NCBI GenBank assembly: GCA_964479475.1
Contig: CAYZMI010000005.1
Coordinates: forward strand, 11,819 to 64,909
DNA length: 53,091 nucleotides
DNA from: an uncultured Rhodospirillaceae bacterium
Lineage (GTDB): Bacteria > Pseudomonadota > Alphaproteobacteria > MPNO01 > UBA2964
Reading direction: 5' to 3'
Position numbers and translations under genes: made by a program. The notes beneath the pieces were generated by a model. The model saw only the letters and a program-made list of their open reading frames with translations, had not been told where the DNA came from and did no database searches. Shown one piece after another: positions 11,608-46,888 of the stretch; positions within the stretch are counted from its first letter, which is position 1, and every line of letters begins with the position of its first letter.

Positions 11608-13368
11608 TTAACCAGCTTCCAGTAAATCAAATACATCACCGTCTCCGCGTACTCCCTCGACGTGGTATCGGTGCCAAAGTGCGTAAAACAACAACACCCA
11701 CGCCGCGAAACCAGCCCGACGACGATTGCTGCAAAAAATCTTTTCCACAGCGCCAGGTCGGCAGAGGTCAGCGACACCTGCCTGCCGTGCCACCAAAGGT
11801 CCCAGTTTAGAACCCCGGTCTATCAACCACTCACCCACCGGAACGGTAAATCCACGTTTGGCGGAAAACGGTTTCGCCTCAGGCAACATCTTTAGCAACC
11901 ATTTGCGCAAAATCCATTTTCCAATTCGCCCCCGGACCTTTAACTGGTCAGGAAGACGAAATGCCGCCCCAGTAACGGCAGAATCTAAAAGCGGCGTTCG
12001 TCCTTCAACACCATGAGCCATTAAACAACGGTCTAGTTTAATAAGCAGGTCATGTGCTAGCCAATCTGTACAGTCCATCGCCTGCGCAATTTGCAGGGAT
12101 GTGCGGCCAACCCCACCTGCCACGGACTCACTCGTAGCAACTCCTTTACGCCAGTCACGGTTTTCCATACGTGCGACTTCTAGTCCCTCGAGTGCGCCCC
12201 GCGAACGCATCGCCCGCTTATATTGCCACCACGGCCGCATCATAGAGCGATATCGACCATATCCTCCAAATAGTTCGTCACCACCCTCACCGCAGAGAAT
12301 AACTTTAAGCTCTTGGCCGGCAACCGCCGCTAGTTTGTAAGTTGGTAATACTGCGTAATCTGCAACAGGATCGTCCATAACGCGTGCAATATTAGGCAAG
12401 GTTTCCCAAAAATCTTGTTCTGTGAAATCTACTTCGACATGTTCCGCGCCGACCGCTGCAGCCACGGCGCGAGCATGCTCCCTTTCGTCGGTTGCCGAGG
12501 TATTCGAAAAACCAACTGTAAAGGCATTTACAGGACGGTCGTTTAGCTTTGCCATCAATGCGATCACAGCCGATGAATCGACTCCTCCCGATAAAAACAT
12601 GCCGTACGGCACATCACTCCGTTGGTGAACTGTCACACTGTCAAGCAAACTAGCTTCAAGACGCTCTAAGGCGCTCCCTTCATCGATGTTCTCGGGTTCT
12701 CCCTCCGGAAGAGCGGGCAATCTTATACGGCGGGCAATTCTGCCAGCCTCTATAACAAGTGTTTCCCCGGGCAACACCCTGTATATGCCCGGGAAAATTG
12801 TTTCCCTTCCTGTCGTGAACTGCAATTGCAATAGTTCCATTGCTGCATCCGGACGAACATCTGCACAAACGACACCCGATGAGATGAGCGATTGAGGTTC
12901 GGAAGCAAAAGCAAAGCCGAACGAGCCCTCAGCGTAATACAATTGCTTGATGCCGAACGGATCGCGCGCAACGAGCAATTTTCTTTGTACAATGTCGTGG
13001 ATCGCGATCGCATACATACCACGCAGATTTTTTGCGAATGAATCACCGTCTCGTTGATAAAGATGAAGCGGCACTTCACAATCTGACTTTGACGAAAATT
13101 CTACATCAGGTAATTCCTTACAGAGCTCGAGGTAGTTATAAATCTCTGCATTTGCAATAAGCGCAGTGCCACTTTGAAGATAAAAGGGCTGATCTCCCGT
13201 TTCCAAATCGATGATCGCTAAACGCCGATGCGCCATTCCAACACTGTCGACAAAATGCTGGCCGTCACCGTCGGGACCTCGATGGACTAAGCTTTCTTGC
13301 ATAGCCCTAATGGCAGCGCGATTTGGCGGCGCACCCGACGCCGTCATAATCCCTGTGATACCACACAT
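11608..13368 (-). CDS. Asparagine synthase (glutamine-hydrolysing)-family amidotransferase
   Basis: It has the N-terminal nucleophile MCGI and the PP-loop FLSGGVDSS. It is 586 aa. Its start overlaps the upstream GT4 stop by 1 nt (TAATG). Confidence 0.9.
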   Translation of the reverse strand: MCGITGIMTASGAPPNRAAIRAMQESLVHRGPDGDGQHFVDSVGMAHRRLAIIDLETGDQPFYLQSGTALIANAEIYNYLELCKELPDVEFSSKSDCEVPLHLYQRDGDSFAKNLRGMYAIAIHDIVQRKLLVARDPFGIKQLYYAEGSFGFAFASEPQSLISSGVVCADVRPDAAMELLQLQFTTGRETIFPGIYRVLPGETLVIEAGRIARRIRLPALPEGEPENIDEGSALERLEASLLDSVTVHQRSDVPYGMFLSGGVDSSAVIALMAKLNDRPVNAFTVGFSNTSATDEREHARAVAAAVGAEHVEVDFTEQDFWETLPNIARVMDDPVADYAVLPTYKLAAVAGQELKVILCGEGGDELFGGYGRYRSMMRPWWQYKRAMRSRGALEGLEVARMENRDWRKGVATSESVAGGVGRTSLQIAQAMDCTDWLAHDLLIKLDRCLMAHGVEGRTPLLDSAVTGAAFRLPDQLKVRGRIGKWILRKWLLKMLPEAKPFSAKRGFTVPVGEWLIDRGSKLGPLVARQAGVADLCRPGAVEKIFCSNRRRAGFAAWVLLFYALWHRYHVEGVRGDGDVFDLLEAG

Positions 13369-14402
13369 TAGGAAGCAAGCCTTTCGAATAGATCAATATA
13401 TTGCGGAAGGACAACATCTTCCGCGTAATAGGTTTCATAGCGCCTCTTGCCGGCGACGGCCAGTCTCGTAGCCAATCGGGGGTCATCGACCAATTGCCGA
13501 ATTGATTCCGCTAGGGCACCCGAGCTATCGACATCTATTAAAAGTCCCGTTACCTCGTCTTCTATAAGGGCTGAAGGCCCCTCGCTCGCGGCCGCAACAA
13601 TTGGCACATCATGCATCCATGCTTCGATCACGATGTTACCAAAGGGTTCATGCCGCGAAGAGCAAACAAACACATCTGCCGCGGCTAGCAAAGCGGGAAC
13701 ATCATTTCGCCAACCAAGAAATCGAATCCGATCTAGAACGCCCAACTTTTTAGCCAGCTTCTTTAGCTGTCTTTCAAGAGGACCCGCTCCGCCCAGCCAA
13801 AGAAAAGTGTCTGGCAATTGGACCAAAGCTTCGATAAGGGTGTCGAAACCTTTATTTTCATGAAAACGTCCGAGAGCGAGCAATAAATTAACGTCCTCGG
13901 GCGTATCTTGTGCTTCTCTTTCAATGGCTTTCATAGGTTCATATGGCGCAAAGTTGGGAATAACACTCAAATCCTCCACATTCCAACCATGACCAGCATA
14001 GAATTGAGCCAAGTCGTCCGTCGTCACCAAGAGGTGATCGCATCGGTTATAATATTTTGGATCATAATACCCTCTCGGTGTTCCCAAATGGGGAAAAGGC
14101 CGATGGGGGGAAGAAACCGGGCACAACGATGATGCCCTATTCATCCATGTCAGAACAATATCCGGTTTAAAATGTTCGATCTCTCGTTTCAGCACCCATT
14201 TAGTCGAAAAATCGAGTACTCCACCATAACGGCAGGTTAAAATATTTATTCCCGCATCGCGCAAAATCTGTTCCCGGGTTGGTTCAGGTCGAATAATTAA
14301 AGTTTGCGAAATTCCTCTATGGTGAAGCGCCAGTGCTAGACGGGCAAAAAATGTCTCCGCTCCTCCTGCGGCGGCCCCCGCCATCAACTGCAATACCTTC
14401 AT
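13368..14402 (-). CDS. GT4-family (GT-B) glycosyltransferase
   Basis: It has the N-terminal GGAETFF motif and the C-terminal EPFGNIVIEAW (E-x7-E). Its start overlaps the upstream stop (TGATG). Confidence 0.85.
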   Translation of the reverse strand: MKVLQLMAGAAAGGAETFFARLALALHHRGISQTLIIRPEPTREQILRDAGINILTCRYGGVLDFSTKWVLKREIEHFKPDIVLTWMNRASSLCPVSSPHRPFPHLGTPRGYYDPKYYNRCDHLLVTTDDLAQFYAGHGWNVEDLSVIPNFAPYEPMKAIEREAQDTPEDVNLLLALGRFHENKGFDTLIEALVQLPDTFLWLGGAGPLERQLKKLAKKLGVLDRIRFLGWRNDVPALLAAADVFVCSSRHEPFGNIVIEAWMHDVPIVAAASEGPSALIEDEVTGLLIDVDSSGALAESIRQLVDDPRLATRLAVAGKRRYETYYAEDVVLPQYIDLFERLAS

Positions 14403-15436
14403 CAGTCGATGAACTCTTCAAACTTGTCTGCAGCTAATTCCCAAGTCCAACGGCGTTGCGATGAAAGCGACACAGAGCTCTGTTCAAGCCACAACGAATC
14501 GTCATTCAAGAGAAGAACCGCATGTTCAGCGAACGATTCATCGTCATCTGTAACAAAACCAGACTGACCATTGATTACCCTCTCAGGAATACAACCCACA
14601 TTCATTACTACCGCCGGTACTCCTACAGCCTGCGCTTCACCAACTGCCAGGCAAAACGTCTCTCCTGGATCACCCCGATACAACAAAAGTCTAGCATTGG
14701 ACAATTCGTTTGCGAGTTCTTCCTTAGCCACCGGTTCCTTCAAGATAACTCCTTCAGACGCCATAGTCGCCGCTTTGTCGAGTATAGGTTTAATTTTTTC
14801 TAGCCGCGCCACACCGTGTGCGCCATACGTTTTCGCACCGGTAAATAGATGTAGCTCCGCAGTTGGACACTCAGGGCGAATTCTCTTCTGCCAAATATCA
14901 AGCAACGGATCGAGACCACGCAGTGGATTGGAAGTAAATACGGCACGTGGCAATGGTGGTACATCATTTCGAGACACGGATAAAAATTCGTCGGATATTC
15001 CATATGGAATAGTCCGCCGCCCGCCATCTGGTGCCCAGCACGGGTATGTTCGTGCGTGATAATTCCCAGAAAACACAATTGTGGGACTTCTGTGCCATAA
15101 CTTCCACAAGTAACGAAATTTCAATAAATAATTAGCAGGATTATGGATCCAAAATACCGCATTTCGCGCGTTCTTGACCAACAGCAGCAATTTATCGCTC
15201 CTATTAGCAATGTAGAGATCGCAGATATTTGGTGTCCCGCTCGACAATGGAACCCATTCGACCCCATTGCGTTGGATCCTTCTATTGCATTTATTATAAA
15301 CCCGTACACGATGTCCCTTAGCTGCAAGGGCATTGGCCAATGAAACAAATGCCGTCTCGGCACCACCTAAGGGCCCAGAAGCAAGAGAATCCCCATCGAA
15401 TTCGATACCGTCATCTGCCATGACGATATCTGCCAT
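14402..15436 (-). CDS. GT4-like (GT-B) glycosyltransferase
   Basis: It has GGAETAFVSLANALAAKGH and ETFCLAVGEAQAVGVP motifs. The ATG at 15436 overlaps the GT2 stop by 1 nt (TGATG). Confidence 0.75.
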   Translation of the reverse strand: MADIVMADDGIEFDGDSLASGPLGGAETAFVSLANALAAKGHRVRVYNKCNRRIQRNGVEWVPLSSGTPNICDLYIANRSDKLLLLVKNARNAVFWIHNPANYLLKFRYLWKLWHRSPTIVFSGNYHARTYPCWAPDGGRRTIPYGISDEFLSVSRNDVPPLPRAVFTSNPLRGLDPLLDIWQKRIRPECPTAELHLFTGAKTYGAHGVARLEKIKPILDKAATMASEGVILKEPVAKEELANELSNARLLLYRGDPGETFCLAVGEAQAVGVPAVVMNVGCIPERVINGQSGFVTDDDESFAEHAVLLLNDDSLWLEQSSVSLSSQRRWTWELAADKFEEFID

Positions 15437-16197
15437 CAATCACCACCCGAACTCGTTTCAAGACGAGCCTTTAGATAAGACAGCACAGGATATAATCCGG
15501 CTAACAAAGCTATCAAGAACCCATAAGGGCCCTCGCGATAGCCACAACGCACGACATAGCATTTGTAAAATCTTGAGAAAATTCGCCGAATGTTATGTCC
15601 GAATGATCCAATATTACCAGAATCCCGCAGATCCTGAGCGCGTGCGGAGGAATAGCTATCGAGTTTAAGTATCAAACCCGAAATATTTAGATCAACGAAG
15701 TGTTGAATGGGCGTCACAAGCCTCGCACCTTTAGTCCCTAGAAATGTTAGTTTGGGATGTACACGCTCTGATCCCCATATTTTTGCCTTTTTTCTAAAGA
15801 GCGCTGCATGTGCGCCACGCCCGAATGATCCACCCCATCCGTACCGCACAAGACGTTCACCTATATGGTTATCAACCGGTATGTCATGCCAGGTTGCTGA
15901 AGACGTCTTTATCACAACAGAAATTTCTTCAGCTAGTTGGCTTGTTACCCTCTCATCCGCATCAATCTCCAATATCCACGTCCCGTCGCATGCTGCGATC
16001 CCCTGATTTCGTCTATCCCCTTCTCTTTCCCAGTCACCCTCTAAAATCTTGCACCCTTGATCTAAAGCAATCTGTTTTGATCGATCAGTGCAACTATCAA
16101 GCACAACAACAATTTCGTCGGTAAATTTTAATTCTTCCAAGCACTCCAACAGTTGCCGTTCTTCATTATGAACAACCACAAGTGCAGAAAGAGACAT
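15436..16197 (-). CDS. GT2-family glycosyltransferase
   Basis: It has LSALVVVHNEE, VVVLDSCTDRS and an EIDADE (DxD-like) motif. I prefer the ATG at 16197, which has a GAAGGAAG RBS. The ORF track starts at 16239. Confidence 0.8.
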   Translation of the reverse strand: MSLSALVVVHNEERQLLECLEELKFTDEIVVVLDSCTDRSKQIALDQGCKILEGDWEREGDRRNQGIAACDGTWILEIDADERVTSQLAEEISVVIKTSSATWHDIPVDNHIGERLVRYGWGGSFGRGAHAALFRKKAKIWGSERVHPKLTFLGTKGARLVTPIQHFVDLNISGLILKLDSYSSARAQDLRDSGNIGSFGHNIRRIFSRFYKCYVVRCGYREGPYGFLIALLAGLYPVLSYLKARLETSSGGD

Positions 16198-16214
16198 TTT
16201 TCTTCCTTCTGACA

Positions 16215-17171
16215 TCATTTCACTTGACTTCGATTCCATAAATCGATTGTTGCAATTGTTGCATTTTCAACGGTTAGACTCGTCATAAGTGATTGGGTAT
16301 CTAAATGATCAAAATCAGGAGCGCCTACCAATTTTTCATAAGGAATTTCAGTTTTTGCGACAGCACATTTACTTCCCCACGGAGCGTAATTAATTGGAGG
16401 GCTGGGTCCGAACAGTCCCAATGTCGGGACGCCCGTTGCAGCCGAAAGATGCATTAGCCCTGAATCATTACCAATGAATAATTGACAACGGCTTAGACAT
16501 GCGGCTGCAGACAGAATATCAACCGAACCAACTAAATCTATACATCGCTCAGGAGGAATTGAATTTAAAATTGGAAGCGCTAGATCTCTCTCATCTTCAC
16601 CACCTAGGACAGCCACGCGCGCACCGGGCAAAATTCCATCTTTTGCCGTAAGTAAATTCAAGAGAGAAACAAATCGATCAGCAGGCCAAATTTTTGCCGC
16701 CCAATTGGCCGTGGGACCAATTGCAATAATTGGGGTTTCACCGTTCATAAATTCATCAGCATAATTTTCCTCATTCCCCGACCACCAAAGCTTCGGAGAT
16801 GGAGGATCGGGCAATTCCATAAAGTTCGCCAAAGCCTCTACCCGATGGAGGTCGTCGTCGACGCTTTGGAGAACCCGTCTCTTTTTTGCAACTAAAGTCC
16901 AAGCCAACCCAGATCCCCGCAAATCAACGACTAGGTCCCACGCGGTTCCAACTACGTTTTTCCAAAGGCTTAACCAATGTAACGAGAAGGGTTGCTTTAC
17001 CAGAGCAATTCTTCTCAAAACCCCTGGGGTAAATTTAAACAAGGGAGCTGGCAGAGAGCCGCTAGCAATAGTAAAATGCGCATCTTCATATTTTTCGATA
17101 AGATGTTGAAGCAATCCAGTGGATAAAACTGCATCGCCAATGCGCGTAGAGCTAATGAAAAGTATGTTCAT
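16215..17171 (-). CDS. GT9-family glycosyltransferase (LPS heptosyltransferase-like)
   Basis: It has MNILFISSTRIGDAV at the N-terminus and NDSGLMHLSAATGVPTLGLFGPS near the C-terminus, both typical of GT9. Confidence 0.8.
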   Translation of the reverse strand: MNILFISSTRIGDAVLSTGLLQHLIEKYEDAHFTIASGSLPAPLFKFTPGVLRRIALVKQPFSLHWLSLWKNVVGTAWDLVVDLRGSGLAWTLVAKKRRVLQSVDDDLHRVEALANFMELPDPPSPKLWWSGNEENYADEFMNGETPIIAIGPTANWAAKIWPADRFVSLLNLLTAKDGILPGARVAVLGGEDERDLALPILNSIPPERCIDLVGSVDILSAAACLSRCQLFIGNDSGLMHLSAATGVPTLGLFGPSPPINYAPWGSKCAVAKTEIPYEKLVGAPDFDHLDTQSLMTSLTVENATIATIDLWNRSQVK

Positions 17172-37433: not shown

Positions 37434-39035
37434 CTATGCACGACCAGTGGGAAAGGGGCTCGTGTCGTTTAGTTCTACTAATTGCGATAACATAATTTGG
37501 ACAAGTTCCTCAGCGACAGCGGGACGGTCCGCCCCTTCCCAGAGATTGGCGTTTTCGTCTGGATCTGCCTTTAGATCGTAAAGCTCCCACCAATTGCCGC
37601 AATGATGATAGGTGAGCCGCCAGCGGTCAGTGACCATTGTCCGAACGCGATCGACTTCATTATTATCGAACTGCGGAATAGCGCTATCTTCTTCTATTAC
37701 AATGGCTGAACGCGGCGGGACTTCACTATCGTTCAGGTTCCGTCCCTGCATACCGTTAAAAGGTTGTAGGCCGGCCATAGACAATATGGTGGGTGCGAGA
37801 TCGATAGTGCCCGTTAAATTTTCGCAAACACCTCCTGCAGATTTCAGGGTGGGATCGTAGATAATGCAAGGCACACGAACCAACCCCTGATAGTGTAGCA
37901 TATATTTCAGCATAATGCCGTGTTCGCCCATAAAATCACCGTGATCTGCAGTAAATATCACGACAGTGTTTTCACTTTGCCCAGTAAGTTCCAAGACCGA
38001 CAGAATTTCACCGATCGCGTCATCTACCATGGCAATCATGCCGTAAGTTAAGGCAATAATACTCTTCGCTTCCTCAGCCGTGACTGCAAATGGTTTTAGC
38101 GGACCTTCTCGGTCTGCGGTGCCGGTCGCCAACTCCTCTCTAAGCCATCTCAACGGTGCTAGTTCTCCTTCGTTAAAGGAAGACGAAAGTAAAATGTCAT
38201 CAGGATCATATAAATCCCAATATTTTCCTGGTGGGGTGAACGGATGATGCGGGTCCGGAAATGAGACTTGAAGAAAGAATGGATTGTCGCGATTTGCTGC
38301 TTGGCGTTCAATAAATTCGCAACTTAATTCTTTTACATAAGACGTCGGGTATAAATTCTCAGGTAATGAAGTACGCCACGCTTGTGGCGCCATACGACGT
38401 TGATCGGAAAGAGCGTTGTCTACTCCGGCTAGCGCGCTAGCACCCGGCTGCTTTTCCTCAAGCCAACGTTGATAATCACCACCAACCATATCGCCATGAC
38501 CCGTGCAGATACGGGCTTCCTTAAAGCCGTAAAATGGTAAGCGGACGTCGTGTTTGGGGTCAGACCACAGCCGCGCATTTTCATTGTCATATGCAGGTCC
38601 GGTGAGCGGGCGCCTATTTGCTTCACGCAAGTCTTCTGGCGGAGCTGATTGACCCTCTATTGTCTTAAATTTTAGGGGTGATAGCCGCCCAGTCATGTTT
38701 TGCAAATGGGATTTGCCCATCAGCCCTGTCCAATAGCCCGCCGATGCGAGTAGCTCGACGAACGTCACATGGTCACGCGACAGCGGGATCCCATTATTGC
38801 GCACGCCATGAACCGATGGCATTCGTCCCGTCATGAGGGATGCTCGGTTAGGCTGGCAAACGGGGTTAGCTACGTAAAAACGGTCATAACGGATACCACG
38901 GGTGGCTAGACTATCAATGTGTGGTGTCTTCAATACCGAATTGCCATAGCAACCGAGATGATCGGCACGGTGTTGATCCGTAATGATAAATAAAAAATTC
39001 GGACGATTTTCCATATTGTTAACTACGTGTGCCAT
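37434..39035 (-). CDS. Type I sulfatase-family hydrolase (Cys-type, apparently cytoplasmic)
   Basis: It has FLFIITDQHRADHLGCYG and the formylglycine motif C-Q-P-N-R-ASLMTGR. No signal peptide is evident. Its start overlaps the upstream gene by 13 nt. Confidence 0.85.
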   Translation of the reverse strand: MAHVVNNMENRPNFLFIITDQHRADHLGCYGNSVLKTPHIDSLATRGIRYDRFYVANPVCQPNRASLMTGRMPSVHGVRNNGIPLSRDHVTFVELLASAGYWTGLMGKSHLQNMTGRLSPLKFKTIEGQSAPPEDLREANRRPLTGPAYDNENARLWSDPKHDVRLPFYGFKEARICTGHGDMVGGDYQRWLEEKQPGASALAGVDNALSDQRRMAPQAWRTSLPENLYPTSYVKELSCEFIERQAANRDNPFFLQVSFPDPHHPFTPPGKYWDLYDPDDILLSSSFNEGELAPLRWLREELATGTADREGPLKPFAVTAEEAKSIIALTYGMIAMVDDAIGEILSVLELTGQSENTVVIFTADHGDFMGEHGIMLKYMLHYQGLVRVPCIIYDPTLKSAGGVCENLTGTIDLAPTILSMAGLQPFNGMQGRNLNDSEVPPRSAIVIEEDSAIPQFDNNEVDRVRTMVTDRWRLTYHHCGNWWELYDLKADPDENANLWEGADRPAVAEELVQIMLSQLVELNDTSPFPTGRA

Positions 39036-39640
39036 CCTCGGGCACGCTTAAATAAATCGGTAATCCAATAAGCTTGGGCGCCAACGGCACCAAGTGGCAG
39101 CAAAATCCATACTAGGTCAAACAGCACGAGTATGAGAACGATGAAACAAAAATCCGCCCGACTAAGCTTGTGAAATACATAGATGAGCCAATCACACCAG
39201 TCTTCCGGTTTGCGAATGTCAGAGGCTTCCTGTTCACGGCTTTTCGTGTCCGGCCCCTTCGCTCCCCGCCAATGCATAATCAAATCTACTACATAGTCGA
39301 TGGTTGCACCTATCGCAGCAACTAGGCCAAGCCAAAACCAAATTATGTTATCGGACACATTCCAGGTGCCATATCCCAATGCAGTGAAAAAAGCACTGTC
39401 CACTGCCCAATCAACGAAGTCATCGAATTTAGCACCCCAAATAGAAGATAGACCTTTAAGGCGTGCGATTTCTCCATCGCAATTATCAAGTGTATAGGAA
39501 AAGACTAATAACATCGCGCCGCAAACTGACCAGCCCCACTCACCTCCACTGAAACAAACAACCCCACTAAGCCCGACCAGTAGCGAACACGCTGTGATTT
39601 GGTTAGGGGTCAGTGAGGTTTTCGCTAACACCCGCGTCAA
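39023..39640 (-). CDS. CDP-alcohol phosphatidyltransferase family protein (copy 1)
   Basis: It has the full signature DNCDGEIAR-x8-G-x3-D-x3-D and a multi-TM architecture. The TTG at 39640 is the first canonical start, but the frame stays open upstream (..LFPLIRHFSFW), so the true start is uncertain. Confidence 0.75.
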   Translation of the reverse strand: MTRVLAKTSLTPNQITACSLLVGLSGVVCFSGGEWGWSVCGAMLLVFSYTLDNCDGEIARLKGLSSIWGAKFDDFVDWAVDSAFFTALGYGTWNVSDNIIWFWLGLVAAIGATIDYVVDLIMHWRGAKGPDTKSREQEASDIRKPEDWCDWLIYVFHKLSRADFCFIVLILVLFDLVWILLPLGAVGAQAYWITDLFKRARGWHT

Positions 39641-39840
39641 CCAAAACGAGAAATGGCGTATCAGCGGGAAAAGCTGCGTAGGGGGCAGGATCTTATTCGT
39701 CGAATTTGATATGTTACCGCTTTCTTTTAAAAACCGAAATTTATTCGAATTAAATTATATTCTTTCCTACAAAATTGGAAAATTTCAATGCTGTCGATTT
39801 GCGCGTATGATCAAACCATATAGCTAACACGGAGAAAATA

Positions 39841-40626
39841 ATGGCGACTAACATTATATCGCCGCAAAGCGAAGAAACACTCAAAGGAAAAGTCAGTGAT
39901 CCCGAATGGCAGGTACGGATGGAGCTCGCAGCAGCTTTTCGCATCGCCTATCACCGTGGTTGGAACGCTTCGACAGCTAACCATATGACTGCGCGCGTGC
40001 CCAACGAACCGCAATATTTTTTAATGAATGCGGCTGATTTCTCCTGGGATGAAATAACTGCTTCCAATCTTCTCAAGTTAGACCACGACGGCAATGTAAT
40101 TGGCGCGACGAACCGAAAACCGCGACCAGCTGGTCTTAATTTTCACAGCGCAATTCAGCGCGAATTGCCACATATTTGCTGTACGCTGCATTTGCACCCA
40201 ATGGCGGGCGTCGTTGTGTCATCTATGCAGGAGGGATTGATGTTCTTCGACCAGGGATCTTGCGGGGTCTACGGACAGGTCTCCTATCACGATTTTGAGG
40301 GTATCGCACAAGAGGCTGATGAAGCCCCCCGAATTCTTTCCGACTTAGGCAATAAATTCACGATGATAATGCGTAATCACGGGCTGCTAACGGTCGGCCG
40401 AACAGTTGCTGAAGCAATGACCTACATGGGACGTCTTGTGCGAGCGTGCGAAACACAAGAGCGCTTGTTGTCAACCAACGCAACCCCAGTACCGTTGTCC
40501 GAAGAAATTTGTGAGTTCACGGTAAAACAGTTTTCCAGTCGAGCAGGGAATAAACCAATCGGTGACATCGAATGGAAAGCGGCTGTTCGCCGACAAGTCA
40601 GACTGGATCCTTCATTCATGAATTGA
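39841..40626 (+). CDS. Class II aldolase/adducin-domain protein
   Basis: It has HLHPMAG and MRNHGLLTVG (metal-binding His residues). At 261 aa it is typical of the family. Confidence 0.8.
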   Translation: MATNIISPQSEETLKGKVSDPEWQVRMELAAAFRIAYHRGWNASTANHMTARVPNEPQYFLMNAADFSWDEITASNLLKLDHDGNVIGATNRKPRPAGLNFHSAIQRELPHICCTLHLHPMAGVVVSSMQEGLMFFDQGSCGVYGQVSYHDFEGIAQEADEAPRILSDLGNKFTMIMRNHGLLTVGRTVAEAMTYMGRLVRACETQERLLSTNATPVPLSEEICEFTVKQFSSRAGNKPIGDIEWKAAVRRQVRLDPSFMN

Positions 40627-40809
40627 ATGTCGGGACGACTGAGAGAGTAGAACAGATATTCTACTATGAATTAGTCAAATCAAATTTCAAAGGCACATTT
40701 TCGACTATATACCTCTCCCGAGCTCCTAAAGACCTCGGTTATATTCGATCCAACTTTTCGAGGTTCCGCACCACTATAGGAAATGTAACTTTTAGACGAA
40801 CGAACGGGT

Positions 40810-41793
40810 ATGAAGATCGCATCGTACATTGGGTTAGCCATCGGCCTAACCCTGCTCACGGGACTGATTGCTTGGCAGGGGCTAGGCGACGTTGTTGCCA
40901 TTCTATTTTCGACAGGCTGGTCACTCTTACTAATACCGCTCGTTTGGTTTCCAACTGTTCTGCTTAACGCACGATCTTGGCAGTTATTGTTCGCTGCCGA
41001 AAACGCACCGAAATTTGTCCAAGCCTTCCTAGCTCAATGGATTGGCCGTGCCGTCAACACCCTTCTACCTGTCGCGACAATAGGCGGCGAAATTGTTAAG
41101 GCACGCGTTCTTACTTTATGGGGCCTCGATGTCCGGCACACTTCCGCATCAGTTGTCGTCGATAAGACCATTCAGGTCATTACAATTATTATATGGGGAC
41201 TGATAGGTATTATTTTACTCGCTTGGATGTCGCTCGACGATGGGATTGCTGCCACGGGATTGATCGGGCTGACACTACTGGGCTTCGGTGTTGTAGGTTT
41301 TATCGTGGCCCAACGTGCAGGATTATTTGGCTTTATGGCTAAGTCGGCCAAGCTAATTTCAAAAGAAAAATACTTCTCAAATCTACAGGTTACGGCGGAA
41401 GGTATAGATCTTGTCGTCATAGACGTTTATCGGCGCAAAGGCCAAGTCTTTCGTGCCGGAATATGGCGTCTGTCGGCCCTCATATTGCAAACCGGTGAAG
41501 TATGGTTAGCGGCTTATTTGCTTGGGTATCCCATCGGACTAATAGAAGCGTTAATGCTCAAGAGCCTAAGCAGCACACTAAGTGATGCAGCCTTTGTGGT
41601 ACCAAACAGCTATGGTGTACAGGAAGGTGCATTCGTCGTCTTGGGTTCGCTTGTCGGTCTAACACCAGACGTTGCAATTGCAATTTCATTGGCCATCCGA
41701 ATTCGAGAAATTTTAATTGATATTCCTGGTCTAGTTTTTTGGCAAATCACCGAAGGAAAAACCCTGTTCCGACATCGCCGTGACACCCGGTAA
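40810..41793 (+). CDS. UPF0104 / LPG-synthase-TM 'flippase-like' membrane protein (HpnL-like)
   Basis: It has 8 or so TM segments and the LLPVATIGGEIVKARVL motif characteristic of PF03706-type proteins. Confidence 0.7.
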   Translation: MKIASYIGLAIGLTLLTGLIAWQGLGDVVAILFSTGWSLLLIPLVWFPTVLLNARSWQLLFAAENAPKFVQAFLAQWIGRAVNTLLPVATIGGEIVKARVLTLWGLDVRHTSASVVVDKTIQVITIIIWGLIGIILLAWMSLDDGIAATGLIGLTLLGFGVVGFIVAQRAGLFGFMAKSAKLISKEKYFSNLQVTAEGIDLVVIDVYRRKGQVFRAGIWRLSALILQTGEVWLAAYLLGYPIGLIEALMLKSLSSTLSDAAFVVPNSYGVQEGAFVVLGSLVGLTPDVAIAISLAIRIREILIDIPGLVFWQITEGKTLFRHRRDTR

Positions 41794-41957
41794 GTTTAAT
41801 AAATTTGATGATTTTTTCCTCCGTAAGCAAAACCTAACCTGAATTAATGTATAAAACTCAACTCAATTCAAACGTATGCCAATCACTTGACTTTAATAAT
41901 TTGATCGCACACGTTTCGGTTAATATTTGAGTTGTAATCGAATTAAAGGAATGCAAC

Positions 41958-43127
41958 TTGGCTGAACCAGGCACCCTTTTTCTGATTCTATTTGGGTGTA
42001 TTTTCGCGTCGTCGGTCGTCTATGTCTTGCTAGCGGCAATCCAGGTATCCAAACAAAAGTCTCGACCTAAAACAAACAAGACCTTCGCACCCGAAATAAC
42101 AATTTTAAAACCGCTTTGCGGGCTCGATTATCAATTATACGAAAATTTATGTAGCTACTGCGAACAAGACTATTCTTCAAATTACCAGATAGTCTTTGGC
42201 CTAAAGGATTGTAGCGACCCAGCATTATCTGTGCTTGAGCAAGTAAAGTCAGAATTTCCTGACCACGACATCTATGTCGTCATTGATGAGAGAGTTTCCG
42301 GTACAAACTATAAGGTCAGTAATCTAAAGCATATGTATCACCACGCAAAATACGACATTGTAATTTGTGCAGATAGTGATGTCCGCGTGAATCGCGACTA
42401 CCTCTCATCCGTTGTAGCACCTTTCAATGATCCAATAGTGGGTGGTGTTACCTGCGCCTATACGGCATCTTCGCATCCTGATTTCGCGTCAACACTTGGA
42501 GCTATGTATATCAATTCTTGGTTCTTACCATCGATACTCATCCATAACGCATTCCAAAATTTTCGCGGATGTTTCGGACAAACGATAGCCGTTCGTCGCC
42601 AATTGCTTGATGAGGTTGGTGGATTTGATTCCTTGAATTCTGTATTGGCTGACGATTACGTTCTCGCAGAATTGATTAGAAAACGAGGATTTAAGGTCGT
42701 GCTTTCCGACTATTTCGTTGATAATGTGGTGCGTGAAAATGGTATAGCCGGCCTTCTCCACCATGAACTTCGATGGGCACGGACAATCTTGTCCATTGAG
42801 CCATTTGGCTATTTCTTTTCAGTATTGACATTCACTATCCCGATATCTTTGTTAACAGCGGTCATAAATTGGTCAATTACAGGATCCGTGTTAGTTAGCA
42901 GCATGCCTGTTCTCGCAGCCTGTGCGTTAAGAATGGCGTTAAATTGCCAAGTGAGTAGCAAATTTAAATTGACAGCGCAAAATGCTATTTGGTTGATACC
43001 GTTGAGAGATTGTTTGAACTTCTTCGTGTGGTGCACCAGTTTTTTTGGACGACGTGTCCGTTGGCGCGAAGAGGAATTTGATATAAGAAACGACGGCAAG
43101 TTGGAGCTTACGGAGCAACAACGTTAA
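41958..43127 (+). CDS. GT2/GT21-type glycosyltransferase (ceramide-glucosyltransferase / HpnI-like)
   Basis: An N-terminal TM segment is followed by ITILKPLCG, CADSDVRV (D-x-D) and HELRWART (Q/HxxRW). It is 389 aa. The TTG start has an AAAGGAA RBS. Confidence 0.8.
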   Translation: MAEPGTLFLILFGCIFASSVVYVLLAAIQVSKQKSRPKTNKTFAPEITILKPLCGLDYQLYENLCSYCEQDYSSNYQIVFGLKDCSDPALSVLEQVKSEFPDHDIYVVIDERVSGTNYKVSNLKHMYHHAKYDIVICADSDVRVNRDYLSSVVAPFNDPIVGGVTCAYTASSHPDFASTLGAMYINSWFLPSILIHNAFQNFRGCFGQTIAVRRQLLDEVGGFDSLNSVLADDYVLAELIRKRGFKVVLSDYFVDNVVRENGIAGLLHHELRWARTILSIEPFGYFFSVLTFTIPISLLTAVINWSITGSVLVSSMPVLAACALRMALNCQVSSKFKLTAQNAIWLIPLRDCLNFFVWCTSFFGRRVRWREEEFDIRNDGKLELTEQQR

Positions 43128-44554
43128 TGATGAAATCTCTCTTTCTAAACCCGCCCTCCTACGACGGCTTTGACGGAGGTGCGGGCGCTCGATATCAATG
43201 CAAGAGGGAGATCCGTTCTTTTTGGTATCCTGTTTGGCTTGCACAACCGGCAGCGCTAATTCCAGGCAGCCGGTTGATTGATGCGCCACCCCGCGGTCTT
43301 TCACTCGACGATGTACTGCCGTTAGCAAATGACTATGAACTTCTCATATTGTATACGAGCACACCGACATTTCCTTCCGACGTGAAGGTTGCTGAAGAAT
43401 TCAAAGCTGCTAATTCAAAACTGTTGATTGGATTTTGTGGTGCCCATGTCGCCGTCAACAACCGCATGACAGTCGTCGCCTCGGATGCCATCGATTTTGT
43501 GTGTGGCAACGAGTTCGATTTCACAATTAAGGAAATTGCCGAGGGCCGATCCCTTTCCGAGGTATACGGCATAACATATAAATCAAACGGTCAAGTTATT
43601 GTAAATCCAGAACGCGAAATCCTCGAAGACATGGACCTACTGCCGTGGGTGACGGATGTTTACGAAAGAGATCTCGTAGTTGAGGATTATTACAATGGCT
43701 ACATGTTGCATCCATACATGTCTCTTTATACCGGTCGCGGCTGCAAATCCCGTTGTACATTTTGCTTATGGCCACAGACTATTGGCGGCCACAATTACCG
43801 AACGCGATCCGTGGCCCATATCACAGCGGAAATAGCATCTGCGCGCGACCGGTTTCCTCAAGTCAAAGAGTTCTTTTTCGACGACGACACTCTAACTGAC
43901 AACATCGCACAGGTTGAGGCATTGGCTAGGGAACTTGGTAAGCTAGGTGTAACCTGGTCCTGCAATGCCAAGGCCAATGTACCGCGTAAAACACTTGAAA
44001 TTATGAAAAGTAATGGCCTTCGTCTTCTGACTGTTGGTTATGAATCTGGAAATCAAAAAATTCTCAACAATATGAAAAAAGGTATTCGGCTAGATTTTGC
44101 GCGCCGTTTTACTTCCGATTGCCACGATCTCGGGATATTAATTCACGGCACATTCATCGTGGGATTACCAGGTGAAACTCCCACAACCATAGAAGAAACC
44201 ATTGCGTATGCAAAAGAGCTAAATCCTAAAACCATCCAAGTCTCTCTGCCGGCGGCTTATCCCGGCACTTACCTTTACGAGCAGGCAAGACAGCATGGCT
44301 GGCTGGAAGAGCAAGGAGACAGGCAGCTTGTAGGTGTTCTAGGCAACCAAGTAAGTGTCCTAAATTACGATCACTTAACCAGCGATGAAATTTTTAAGGC
44401 CGTCGACGATTTTTATAAACGATTCTATTTTCGACCTAAAAAAATGGGGGCGTTAGCAATGGATATGCTGAAGAGTCCTGCGGTAATGAAACGCCAAGTT
44501 CGGGAAGGTGCTGAATTTTTTCGATTCCTTTGGCAACGTCAGAACGCAACTTGA
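43127..44554 (+). CDS. B12-binding-domain radical SAM enzyme (HpnJ-like)
   Basis: It has the CxxxCxxC motif GRGCKSRCTFCLWPQ at about residue 205, after a B12-binding-like N-terminal domain. The N-terminus LFLNPPSYDGFDGGAGARYQCKREIRSFWYPVWLAQPAAL resembles HpnJ as I recall it. TAATG coupling links it to the glycosyltransferase gene. Confidence 0.8.
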   Translation: MMKSLFLNPPSYDGFDGGAGARYQCKREIRSFWYPVWLAQPAALIPGSRLIDAPPRGLSLDDVLPLANDYELLILYTSTPTFPSDVKVAEEFKAANSKLLIGFCGAHVAVNNRMTVVASDAIDFVCGNEFDFTIKEIAEGRSLSEVYGITYKSNGQVIVNPEREILEDMDLLPWVTDVYERDLVVEDYYNGYMLHPYMSLYTGRGCKSRCTFCLWPQTIGGHNYRTRSVAHITAEIASARDRFPQVKEFFFDDDTLTDNIAQVEALARELGKLGVTWSCNAKANVPRKTLEIMKSNGLRLLTVGYESGNQKILNNMKKGIRLDFARRFTSDCHDLGILIHGTFIVGLPGETPTTIEETIAYAKELNPKTIQVSLPAAYPGTYLYEQARQHGWLEEQGDRQLVGVLGNQVSVLNYDHLTSDEIFKAVDDFYKRFYFRPKKMGALAMDMLKSPAVMKRQVREGAEFFRFLWQRQNAT

Positions 44555-44575
44555 ATTCGACACGCCATTCGCGAA

Positions 44576-45178
44576 ATGGCTTTTAATTCATGGTCCCATA
44601 AATTCGTACGAGTGCTGGTCAAGCCACTGGCAAATTCGGTCGTTACACCAAATCACTTAACCACTATTCGTTTATTGACCGGATTGGCTGCCTGTATAGC
44701 ACTTGCTTTCGGCGATCGCACTTGGGACATCTGGGGAGGTGCACTATGGGTAGTGTCAGCGCTATTCGACCGGGCAGACGGTGAGCTGGCTCGCATCAGT
44801 GAAAAGTATAGCGAATGGGGGCATATTTACGATTATTATTGTGACGTTACTATTCTTGGGTTGTTTTTTATTGGCGTGGGTATTGGCGCGCAAGACAGTG
44901 GCTATGGCTCCTGGACAATTCTGATGGGCACGATAGCGGGATTTGCTGCAGCTTATTGCACTGTTTTGGCTGAAAAATTTGCTCAAACACAAGGTAATCG
45001 CGCCAAGGTTTACCCCAGCAAATTTGGTTTTGACTTTGATGACATCCTTTATTTATTTGCACCCATCATATGGTTAGATTGGCATGTGGAATTTGTCATT
45101 GCGGCGGCATTTGGCGCGCCCATTTTTGTGTTAATTACGAGGTGGAAATTAGGGAGAACGGATCGTCAAATACCTTAA
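44576..45178 (+). CDS. CDP-alcohol phosphatidyltransferase family protein (copy 2)
   Basis: It has the signature DRADGELAR-x8-G-x3-D-x3-D. It is 200 aa, multi-TM, and a paralog of 39023..39640. Confidence 0.75.
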   Translation: MAFNSWSHKFVRVLVKPLANSVVTPNHLTTIRLLTGLAACIALAFGDRTWDIWGGALWVVSALFDRADGELARISEKYSEWGHIYDYYCDVTILGLFFIGVGIGAQDSGYGSWTILMGTIAGFAAAYCTVLAEKFAQTQGNRAKVYPSKFGFDFDDILYLFAPIIWLDWHVEFVIAAAFGAPIFVLITRWKLGRTDRQIP

Positions 45179-45560
45179 ACCCGATGCAGAGCTTGAGTAT
45201 TTCTCCTCTATCCCTGCGACAGGCTATTAACAGAATATACGCAACCCATCCACAAGCGTCTCGAGCCATCCCTATAGTTTGGCAGTATGAAATTACTAAT
45301 ATTTGATCTCAAAATATTTCTTCATAAATCGTAGTTTTTAGGTCTACGTATGTGGCGATTGATGCATAGGCCGCACTAATTGAATTAAATATCCAATTTT
45401 GGCAAAATTTAATGAAATTTACCCGTACATACGGATGGGCTGAAAGTTAGATCAGCTTAAAACTTTATTGCCCTCGCGAAGACGCCATTCTTGCGGCATT
45501 GTTTGGTCTAAGGCATTTTGGCACCCTGAGTTGATCCTATTAAAGGGAGTCCGAATAAGT

Positions 45561-46628
45561 ATGGCGCGCGATGAACAAATCGATATTGTAATTCGAATTT
45601 TTACACACCGATTTATTACTAGCGGCATACCGCTTGCAGATTTTCATGAAGCCACAGATGGCATTGAACACTGGGAAGACTGGCTACCACGTTGGTCGGC
45701 TCGTGCCGAAATACACGAGGCATTAGGCCACCAAGCCATTGAGAACAACAATAAACTAAGCGCTGGCGAACATCTTACCACTGCCGCTTTGCTGTATCAT
45801 TTCGGCAAATTTATGGCTGTGCAATTCCCTGACGAAATGAAGGCCGCACATAAAAAAGCAATTGAATGCCGTACGTTAGCACTCCCCTATTTGGATCCTA
45901 GAGGGGAACGCGTTGAGATACCATTTGAAGCAAAATCGCTTTTCGCAAATCTTCGCCAACCTAGTGGAATAGACAAACCACCAATCGTCATGCTCGTTCC
46001 CGGTTTAGAAGCAACCAAAGAGGAAATTGGGCGCTATGAGGATTCTCTATTGGCCCGAGGTTTAGCAACTCTATCAATCGATGGGCCTGGACAAGGGGAA
46101 GGTGAATATGATTTTCCTATTAGAGGAAATTATGAAACTGTCGCAAGCCCCATTATTGACTGGCTAGAATTCCGAGGCGATGTCGATATTAACCGAATAG
46201 GTATCTACGGCGTCAGCATGGGCGGGTATCATGCGCCGCGCGCCTGCTGTTTTGAAAAACGGATAAAAGCATGTGTTAGTGTATCAGGCGCCTATGAATG
46301 GGGAGCAAATTGGGACAAAAAATCGCACCTGAACCGCGATGTATTTCGTATAAGGAGCCATTGTGCAACCATGGAAGAAGCCAAGGAAAAGTCCAAAACG
46401 TTGTCTCTTCGAGGAATAGCGGGAAACATTACCTGTCCAATCTTTATTGTCGCCGGAGGACTTGACCAATTGACAGCCGTGGAAGCAGCTGAACAACTCG
46501 CAGCCGATGTGTCAGGGCCTAAAATTTTATCAATTGTTGAGGACGGGGTACACGTCTGTCATAACCGACCTTATAAATTCCGACCGCAGACGTCCGATTG
46601 GATGGCGCGGCAATTACAGACAACTTAA
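45561..46628 (+). CDS. Alpha/beta hydrolase with N-terminal helical domain (FrsA / DHPON-hydrolase-like)
   Basis: It has the nucleophile elbow GVSMGG, preceded by a helical region of about 130 aa. An AAAGGGAG RBS precedes the ATG at 45561. Confidence 0.65.
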   Translation: MARDEQIDIVIRIFTHRFITSGIPLADFHEATDGIEHWEDWLPRWSARAEIHEALGHQAIENNNKLSAGEHLTTAALLYHFGKFMAVQFPDEMKAAHKKAIECRTLALPYLDPRGERVEIPFEAKSLFANLRQPSGIDKPPIVMLVPGLEATKEEIGRYEDSLLARGLATLSIDGPGQGEGEYDFPIRGNYETVASPIIDWLEFRGDVDINRIGIYGVSMGGYHAPRACCFEKRIKACVSVSGAYEWGANWDKKSHLNRDVFRIRSHCATMEEAKEKSKTLSLRGIAGNITCPIFIVAGGLDQLTAVEAAEQLAADVSGPKILSIVEDGVHVCHNRPYKFRPQTSDWMARQLQTT

Positions 46629-46639
46629 GGGTACTAAAA

Positions 46640-46888
46640 ATGTCAAATTATTACTCTCCTGACCTGGGACAAAACCCGAATGACCCTTTTGCACGCGACG
46701 CCGATGGCAAACTAGCTCGACGGTCATTTTGGCTGGATTTGAGTGATCGGTCGCTTGTCTTGTTAATGAATCAAGGACTGGGTGCTGCTCTTTCCAACGA
46801 ACACAAACGCATGCATCTCGACGACATCGGTCGCGGACATTTGATCGATGAAGTATGCACGGTGGAAATTTTGCCACCTGAAGAGTGA
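46640..46888 (+). CDS. Small hypothetical protein (82 aa)
   Basis: The ATG at 46640 lies 11 nt after the hydrolase stop and has an AAGGG upstream. I recognise no family. Confidence 0.4.
   Translation: MSNYYSPDLGQNPNDPFARDADGKLARRSFWLDLSDRSLVLLMNQGLGAALSNEHKRMHLDDIGRGHLIDEVCTVEILPPEE

Follow-up and report, generated by a model that had tools for sequence, protein, structure and literature searches.

The stretch analysed here, 53,091 nucleotides of contig CAYZMI010000005.1 (hereafter the window), carries an operon in which the hopanoid-associated genes hpnL, hpnI and hpnJ are combined with a pair of CDP-alcohol phosphotransferases (CDP, cytidine diphosphate). The open reading frames (ORFs) confirm the five plus-strand genes listed in an earlier reading of the same DNA (the original prediction). 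These are a class II aldolase/adducin-family gene (39841-40626; PF00596 134 bits; NF005451 244 bits, cut-off 207); a gene for the flippase-like membrane protein HpnL (LPG_synthase_TM family; 40810-41793; TIGR03476 254.9 bits, cut-off 195.65; PF03706); one for HpnI, a GT2/GT21 glycosyltransferase (41958-43127; TIGR03472 418.7 bits, cut-off 310; PF13506, GT21); one for HpnJ, a B12-binding radical SAM enzyme (43127-44554; TIGR03471 738 bits, cut-off 577.6); and one for a 200-residue CDP-alcohol phosphotransferase that we call CDP-OH-PT_B (44576-45178; PF01066). A 21-nt spacer (44555-44575) separates the last two and marks the site that hpnK occupies in every close relative. On the minus strand, divergent from the hpn operon, lies the gene for a second paralogue, CDP-OH-PT_A (39023-39640; PF01066).

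The likeness of the three central proteins to HpnL, HpnI and HpnJ, first proposed from length, order and motifs, held up in the profile searches, all of which exceeded the curated cut-offs; TIGR03472 (HpnI) and TIGR03471 (HpnJ) are equivalog models, and TIGR03476 (HpnL) is a subfamily model. Residues 15-382 of HpnI align to profile positions 11-370 of 373, and the protein contains the DSD and HELRW motifs. The HpnJ match covers profile positions 1-471 of 472, with the CxxxCxxC cluster motif present as CKSRCTFC at residue 206. Of the near-invariant residues, HpnL was found to keep 26 of 26, HpnI 42 of 44 (columns at least 93% conserved; control members keep as many) and HpnJ 192 of 196. The predicted TAATG overlap of hpnI and hpnJ, which indicates translational coupling, was also confirmed.

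Similarly, the set is indeed bracketed by CDP-alcohol transferases, two intact genes whose products match PF01066 (40.1 bits for A and 53.9 bits for B, against a gathering score of 22) and carry the full motif D-x2-D-G-x2-A-R-x8-G-x3-D-x3-D, at residue 52 in A and residue 65 in B. Each keeps 22 of 22 near-invariant residues, and the two paralogues are 33% identical. Their start codons are uncertain: the gene caller applied to a near-identical locus, L081, gives 163 and 188 residues for A and B, and the longest ORFs give 205 (from a TTG start) and 200. This L081 locus, from an independent marine assembly in ENA, is 99-100% identical to the window copy, so the gene arrangement is no assembly artefact.

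The arrangement is also far from chance, since more than 40 loci of various lineages, dozens of metagenome contigs among them, combine CDP-OH-PT with Hpn genes. A scan for HpnJ, taking one genome per species, yielded 80 loci, and the order CDP-OH-PT_A (opposite strand), HpnL, HpnI, HpnJ, HpnK, CDP-OH-PT_B was present in 12 of them. All 12 species are uncultured alpha- and gammaproteobacteria whose HpnJ is 68-73% identical to that of the window. The scan of metagenome contigs relied on an alignment of the transferase alone and is therefore unbiased with respect to hopanoid genes. In one of the module-bearing loci (L006), the gene between HpnJ and CDP-OH-PT_B was identified as HpnK, a YdjC-type deacetylase (TIGR03473 340 bits, cut-off 232.6).

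The other 68 HpnJ loci, which we term canonical, have hpnIJ embedded among hopanoid genes, and not one of them carries the transferase. The accompanying genes were hpnH (23/68), ispH (21/68), shc (20/68), dxs (20/68), hpnM (19/68), hpnG (14/68) and hpnN (12/68). In the HpnJ tree the transferase-bearing loci are essentially monophyletic, with the window at the base of their clade on a rather long branch. The transferase tree, in turn, separates into two deep paralogue groups: A occurs only beside hpnL-I-J-K modules, and B interleaves the copies from the window, marine loci, phosphonate clusters and loci where the transferase adjoins HpnN.

The closest syntenic relatives, L176 to L179, place the window operon in context. 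Their gene order is aldehyde dehydrogenase (ALDH), sulfatase and CDP-OH-PT_A (both on the opposite strand), inserted genes, HpnL, HpnI, HpnJ, HpnK, CDP-OH-PT_B, an FrsA-like hydrolase, an 82-residue ORF and an ABC-F protein that is 76% identical to its window counterpart. HpnK lies between HpnJ and CDP-OH-PT_B in L179 with a score of 356 bits, but nothing resembling it (TIGR03473 deacetylase) was found anywhere in the window, which thus lacks a complete hpnI, hpnK and hpnJ set. Because these syntenic relatives keep the gene, their comparison with the window indicates that hpnK is cleanly deleted in the window lineage, leaving the 21-nt spacer. The original prediction was right that hpnK is absent from the window, but it missed the place of the gene inside this very operon in every close relative. 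Two further module-bearing loci, L092 and L114, also have no hpnK between hpnJ and the following gene while the rest of the module is intact, which indicates that hpnK can reside elsewhere; in the HpnJ tree L092 groups with the hpnK-bearing L011. Loss of the gene from the operon, or its relocation, thus seems to have happened more than once.

The loss is accompanied by uneven divergence. Between the window and L179, identity is 85% for ALDH and the FrsA-like hydrolase, 76% for ABC-F, 74% for the sulfatase and HpnJ, 72% for HpnL and 66% for CDP-OH-PT_A, and falls to 51% for CDP-OH-PT_B and 45% for HpnI. Relative rates were estimated by comparing the identity of window and L179 proteins to 17-18 common outgroups. 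On this scale the window proteins lag behind those of L179 by 5-7 identity points for CDP-OH-PT_A, HpnL and HpnJ, by 9.5 points for HpnI, and by 21 points for CDP-OH-PT_B (51% to the outgroups, vs 72.5% for the L179 copy). Window HpnI is 41-49% identical to all other HpnI proteins, except for a near-identical sequence (P0001). The idea that it is a xenologous outlier was dropped, since members of the clade average 46% identity to one another and the window protein averages 41% to them; HpnI evolves fast everywhere, which leaves only a moderate extra acceleration for the window copy. The five module proteins keep 95-100% of their near-invariant residues, like control members of the clade, and for this reason the divergence of the window lineage looks like a functional shift and not decay. 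That the sharp divergence of CDP-OH-PT_B coincides with the loss of hpnK provides indirect evidence that this transferase may act on the sugar or cyclitol head normally processed by HpnK.

As the original prediction stated, shc, hpnH, hpnG and hpnK are missing from the window: tblastn with several references for each of SHC, HpnH, HpnG, HpnM, HpnN, HpnA, IspH, Dxs and HpnK (E<=1e-3) gave no match in the 53 kb. When the contig was extended, by about 10 kb on the left and 4 kb on the right, the added sequence held nothing but housekeeping and catabolic genes. The absence of shc from 53 kb, or from the roughly 67 kb thus covered, is nevertheless uninformative about a hopanoid core, because relatives of the window do have core genes and because a survey has found HpnI and HpnJ only in genomes with SHC and HpnH. 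Among 15,541 species, genomes with HpnI and HpnJ domains always contained SHC and HpnH as well (bioRxiv 10.1101/2025.07.29.667474). In addition, about 70% of Rhodospirillales genomes carry shc, and hpnL is absent from the surveyed alphaproteobacteria that lack hpnH (PMC12583986).

Our comparison of relatives points to a hopanoid core beyond the module, the very finding that the original prediction had named as its refutation, both in two marine loci (L112 and L120) and in the genus Shumkonia. In the two marine loci, HpnK (L112) or HpnJ (L120) is followed by CDP-OH-PT_B, a methyltransferase, a PPTase, a squalene-synthase-like gene, SHC (786 bits, cut-off 431), HpnG, a PhyH-type dioxygenase, HpnN (817 bits, cut-off 752), a third CDP-OH-PT and HpnA, the latter recognised by tblastn. 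The run from the squalene-synthase-like gene to HpnA begins within about 3 kb after the HpnJ-HpnK-CDP-OH-PT_B block. HpnK, HpnJ and CDP-OH-PT_B of these loci are nested in the clade of the window and are 72-86% identical to main-clade members (L119, L115 and L008), which places L112 and L120 in the same lineage as the relatives of the window. The cultured species Shumkonia mesophila (GCA_026163695.1) has the complete six-gene module, and two Shc hits and one HpnH hit are listed for its genus (PMC12583986, Table 2). Proximity to hopanoid genes was also evident in soil contig L155, where the transferase is surrounded by HpnN (995 bits), two HpnL copies and HpnI, and in L158, L162 and L167, where HpnN adjoins the transferase.

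Two genes in these marine clusters deserve mention in their own right. The third CDP-OH-PT, between hpnN and hpnA (10247-10855 in L112; 10668-11276 in L120), is of a divergent type, 36-42% identical to the B group, and the dioxygenase between hpnG and hpnN is PhyH/PhnY*-like.

The substrates of the transferases are not transferable by homology, since all characterised equivalogs have cut-offs far above their scores; against archaetidylinositol-phosphate synthase, PIP synthase and PgsA they reached at best 46-54 bits (cut-offs 109-580). The closest solved structures are those of AF2299/IPCT-DIPPS (4O6M, 4MND) and CHPT1/CEPT1 (9UET, 8GYW). They share the fold family and signature motif of the window transferases, and these known enzymes use soluble CDP-alcohol donors; the similarity is weak, however (E = 2e-7 to 5e-3). 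CDP-OH-PT_B has more than 1,100 homologues. Upstream sequence was usable in 48 of the loci retrieved with the transferase alone, and the adjacent upstream gene was HpnK in 22 of these, HpnL in 15 and HpnJ in one (38/48).

In many soil loci the HpnL-transferase pair shares one operon with phosphonate genes. These encode a phosphoenolpyruvate (PEP) mutase fused to a nucleotidyltransferase (PepM-NTP; TIGR02320 382 bits, cut-off 320), phosphonopyruvate decarboxylase (Ppd; TIGR03297 429 bits, cut-off 312) and the 2-aminoethylphosphonate (2-AEP) transaminase PhnW (NF010006 543 bits, cut-off 296), together with a separate cytidylyltransferase-like gene and a PhnY*-like dioxygenase. PepM-NTP, Ppd, PhnW, HpnL and the transferase cluster in the soil loci and in Burkholderia cenocepacia, in agreement with the seven-gene core of the “Group 1 phosphonolipid” clusters, whose product is predicted to be a phosphonolipid and has never been characterised (Li & Horsman, PMC8942020), and with a Nostoc cluster drawn with the same gene list, hpnL included. 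We confirmed the full seven-gene core in L144, L145, L156, L180 and L181. The window CDP-OH-PT_B is 40% identical to the copy in the B. cenocepacia phosphonate cluster. The HpnL-family protein of that cluster (L180 13166-14455; NZ_CP091013.1) reached 371 bits, the highest TIGR03476 score met in this analysis; the “HpnL” model may therefore be centred on phosphonate-cluster proteins and not on those of hopanoid loci.

These Group 1 or “Burkholderiales_CDP-OH” pepM clusters (Yu et al. 2013; Li & Horsman 2022, PMC8942020) resemble the window in pairing HpnL with a B-family transferase and in having an uncharacterised product. They differ in their five other core genes, PepM-cytidylyltransferase, Ppd, AEP transaminase, a second cytidylyltransferase and a 2-oxoglutarate (2OG) oxygenase, which are not in the window (tblastn queries for PepM-NTP, PhnW, NTP and PhyH found no match there, and Ppd was not among the queries). 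The window, for its part, adds the second transferase paralogue (A), hpnI and hpnJ.

The most informative case, a cultured strain, brings the phosphonate and hopanoid contexts together. On plasmid p1318-3 of Roseomonas marmotae (NZ_CP061094.1 9977-34447; L181), a complete AEP pathway is embedded in an annotated hopanoid cluster. According to the RefSeq annotation and tblastn, the first part of this stretch holds hpnA, a glycosyltransferase gene, hpnC, hpnD, hpnE, shc, hpnG, hpnH and ispH; the middle holds genes for a CDP-alcohol phosphatidyltransferase (35% identical to the window CDP-OH-PT_B), PhnW, an HpnL-family protein (260 bits), aepY, aepX and a cytidylyltransferase; and the last part holds a polyprenyl synthetase gene, dxs, HpnN and VacJ. 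As in the window, HpnL and the transferase are joined to hopanoid genes. In R. marmotae, however, the pair is accompanied by shc, hpnH, hpnN and a full phosphonate supply, with no hpnIJK in the stretch examined, whereas in the window it stands with hpnI and hpnJ and has neither core nor phosphonate genes. Linkage of pepM to terpenoid genes is frequent in acidophilic Acetobacteraceae, for which “an undiscovered terpene-phosphonate” has been suggested (PMC8776678). Our literature search found no paper tying the CDP-OH-PT family to hopanoids.

Taken together, the window locus is probably a split tailoring locus for the cyclitol ether of bacteriohopanetetrol (BHT), fused to a pair of head-group phospho- or phosphonotransferases, with its hopanoid core elsewhere in the genome; it would thus not be independent of hopanoids. 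We infer a core elsewhere, a common arrangement for hpnIJK. In such a pathway SHC, HpnH and HpnG would make BHT. By analogy with characterised homologues, HpnI would add N-acetylglucosamine (GlcNAc) to the C-35 hydroxyl of BHT, HpnK would deacetylate the sugar, and HpnJ would contract the ring of the resulting glucosamine to an amino-cyclitol ether, steps established in Burkholderia (Schmerk et al. 2015, as relayed in PMC12583986 and PMC13459092). With hpnK deleted, either deacetylation in the window lineage must come from a gene acting in trans or the chemistry of the head group has shifted, and the unusual divergence of HpnI and the strong acceleration of CDP-OH-PT_B fit the second option. 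The transferase pair would move a phospho- or phosphono-alcohol activated with cytidine monophosphate (CMP) onto a lipid hydroxyl, most likely on the hopanoid polyol or on its sugar or cyclitol head, with HpnL as a membrane partner or flippase. In clusters of the soil and Burkholderia type, the donor is plausibly CMP-AEP.

The characterised BHT cyclitol-ether pathway of B. cenocepacia, HpnI-HpnK-HpnJ, is among the nearest known systems. Both the profile scores and the conserved residues place HpnI and HpnJ of the window in the same families; their genes likewise adjoin each other, are coupled in translation and share the operon with HpnL, and such genes can be located away from shc, as in Burkholderia. 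The window operon differs in lacking hpnK, in having an HpnI only 41-49% identical to others, and in its two flanking transferases, which have not been described for characterised producers. The value of the finding lies in this joining of hopanoid cyclitol-ether genes to the uncharacterised HpnL/CDP-OH-PT pair of Group 1 clusters, together with the variant that lacks hpnK. The original prediction had proposed an uncharacterised pathway, and the coupling to CDP-OH-PT is indeed both conserved and uncharacterised, but the step from a missing hopanoid core to a new lipid pathway is unsupported.

Several observations weigh against this assignment. Neither shc nor hpnH was found in about 67 kb of the genome (the window plus the L171 and L174 flanks), so that its core is a matter of inference, and among marine module-bearing loci all except L112 and L120 are without hopanoid core genes within 10 kb. 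The Shumkonia evidence is a published table at genus level and not at sequence level. The lack of hpnK also leaves a gap in the canonical route to the cyclitol ether. With regard to the proposed head group, the phosphonate cluster of B. cenocepacia lies away from its hopanoid genes, and no phosphorus-containing hopanoid is among the 63 bacteriohopanepolyol (BHP) structures reported from 52 cultured alphaproteobacteria (PMC12583986). Finally, no pepM, phnW or cytidylyltransferase gene was found near the module in the window or the marine clade.

A more specific proposal can be put forward tentatively, and we regard it as possible but rather doubtful. HpnL and CDP-OH-PT might couple a CMP-activated phosphonate (AEP or 1-hydroxy-AEP) or a phospho-alcohol with the side chain of the hopanoid or with its glucosamine or cyclitol head. 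Phosphorus-containing composite hopanoids would then be both the product of Group 1 clusters and the explanation of HpnL function. The window lineage, having lost hpnK and with HpnI diverged and CDP-OH-PT_B some 3-4x further than its neighbours, would have switched to a different head-group acceptor, one that is still N-acetylated or that carries another sugar.

The most serious competitor, which we consider unlikely without being negligible, keeps the hopanoid role of HpnI and HpnJ and assigns HpnL and CDP-OH-PT to a separate, co-regulated phospho- or phosphonoglycerolipid, such as diacylglyceryl-AEP, that would serve membrane remodelling together with hopanoids, with no covalent link between the two. 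The Group 1 prediction itself rests on analogy with the transfer of CMP-AEP to diacylglycerol (PMC8942020), and the HpnL relatives MprF and AglD act on phospholipids (bioRxiv 10.1101/2025.07.29.667474); the separation of the Burkholderia cluster from the hopanoid genes and the lack of any report of a phosphorus-containing hopanoid also speak for it. Yet Burkholderia, where the clusters are prevalent and expressed, has yielded no such phosphonolipid (PMC8942020), the surveyed alphaproteobacterial genomes without hpnH also lack hpnL, and the transferase sits inside the hopanoid clusters of R. marmotae, L112, L120 and L155. The divergence of CDP-OH-PT_B alongside the loss of hpnK is likewise hard to explain if the transferase never meets the sugar head.

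The original prediction went further and replaced the hopanoid with a phospholipid-type or polyol acceptor, a claim that finds no support in view of Shumkonia, L112 and L120, the 15,541-species survey and the R. marmotae plasmid. An elaborated form of this reading supposes an organism without hopanoids, in which the transferases make a phosphatidyl-polyol as a mimic of BHT, HpnI adds a sugar and ring contraction of that sugar by HpnJ yields a bacterial calditol-like phospholipid; it appears very improbable to us. It would account for some 67 kb of genome with no hopanoid core gene, for the location of most marine modules among housekeeping genes and, through a changed substrate, for the diverged HpnI and missing hpnK. 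There is also a precedent in calditol synthase (Cds) of Sulfolobus, a radical SAM enzyme that turns a hexose into a cyclopentyl polyol ether, there on an ether lipid other than a hopanoid (PMC13459092), although Cds acts on an archaeal tetraether and is compared with HpnJ here by analogy of the proposed chemistry. Against this stand the shc, hpnG and hpnN genes adjoining the module in members of the same clade, the Shc and HpnH hits in the genus of a cultured carrier, the absence of HpnI and HpnJ domains from surveyed genomes without SHC, and the scores above curated cut-offs and family-invariant residues of HpnL, HpnI and HpnJ. Moreover, hpnIJK(L) of canonical producers work without CDP-OH-PT, and in many loci the transferase accompanies HpnL alone, which argues that the transferase is not the source of the HpnI acceptor. 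We give equally little credence to a decaying remnant, in which the operon would be drifting without function since the loss of hpnK. That loss would fit decay, as would the evolution of all module proteins, which is faster on the window branch than in the syntenic relative, but the ORFs are intact, catalytic motifs and 95-100% of near-invariant residues are kept as in controls, near-identical partial copies occur in several independently assembled metagenome samples, and L092 and L114 also lack hpnK beside an otherwise intact module.

The function of HpnL and the product of the abundant Group 1 clusters of Burkholderia, Nostoc and other bacteria have been open questions for more than a decade. 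Throughout a clade that is widespread in marine and sediment settings, the HpnL/CDP-OH-PT pair shares an operon with cyclitol-ether genes, and elsewhere it lies inside shc clusters that contain a full AEP pathway. The hypothesis can be tested in cultured strains, such as Shumkonia mesophila, Roseomonas marmotae and Burkholderia, by looking for hopanoids with phosphonate or phosphodiester heads. If it is true, these would represent a new class of bacteriohopanepolyols of relevance to biomarker geochemistry, and marine phosphonate production would be tied to membrane lipids. If it is false, the locus would be a split hopanoid-tailoring operon beside a phospholipid-modifying pair.

The remaining genes around the module vary in how closely they follow it. 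The class II aldolase, which the original prediction had counted as a pathway member, was ruled out in that role because it is kept in no module-bearing locus other than the window and the near-identical L081; relatives have UbiD, glutathione S-transferase (GST) or hydrolase genes at this variable insertion site. The aldolase is thus probably a lineage-specific insertion outside the system.

On the other side of CDP-OH-PT_A, a minus-strand gene for a Cys-type sulfatase-family hydrolase (37434-39035; PF00884 163 bits; CQPNR formylglycine motif) shares the 13 nt at its start with the 3' end of the transferase gene. The same two genes stand together in the syntenic L179 (74% identity), and sulfatases are also located near CDP-OH-PT_B in L107, L125 and L126. 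The protein scores under the cut-offs for arylsulfatase, choline sulfatase and PehA, the last being a sub-threshold match to a phosphonate/sulfate ester hydrolase type. A role as a head-group transferase of the LtaS/EptA type was rejected in view of the formylglycine CxPxR motif, the lack of a visible transmembrane region and a score of about 21 bits for LtaS/YejM. Judged by these features, it looks like a soluble ester hydrolase, a possible accessory gene product that might turn over the head group.

Downstream of CDP-OH-PT_B, an FrsA-like alpha/beta hydrolase gene (45468-46628, plus strand; PF06500) is a syntenic neighbour that keeps the same position in L176 and L179 (84-85% identity) and is not found beside the module in more distant lineages. 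Any role in the pathway is speculative. It was considered as a deacetylase replacing HpnK and dropped, being equally present in relatives that keep hpnK. A small plus-strand ORF (46598-46888), called as 82 residues in relatives, keeps its position between CDP-OH-PT_B and ABC-F.

The rest of the window contains amidases, transporters, dioxygenases and a glycosyltransferase cluster resembling those for lipopolysaccharide (LPS) cores. This envelope-glycan-type cluster (11608-17171, minus strand), with a glutamine-dependent asparagine synthase, two GT4, a GT2 and a GT9 heptosyltransferase-like gene, appears unconnected to the hpn locus. No tRNA genes or Rfam matches were found in the window, and promoter and terminator scans gave sites no more numerous than in shuffled sequence. 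An exact-sequence look-up of the window HpnJ matched no record. The nearest named sequences to the window ABC-F protein come from Rhodospirillales metagenome-assembled genomes (MAGs), and the source is an uncultured, Rhodospirillales-like marine alphaproteobacterium.

Other carriers of the module have neighbours of their own. In an abundant gammaproteobacterial carrier, represented by more than 24 contigs, an operon for a PPTase, an HpnA-like epimerase/reductase, an AMP-binding enzyme and a hydrolase (L088-L090 15070-18448) is located 5 kb downstream of the module, and genes for a cytochrome P460 and a pyrroloquinoline quinone (PQQ) dehydrogenase are nearby. L112, L119 and L120 again contain the methyltransferase and PPTase genes.

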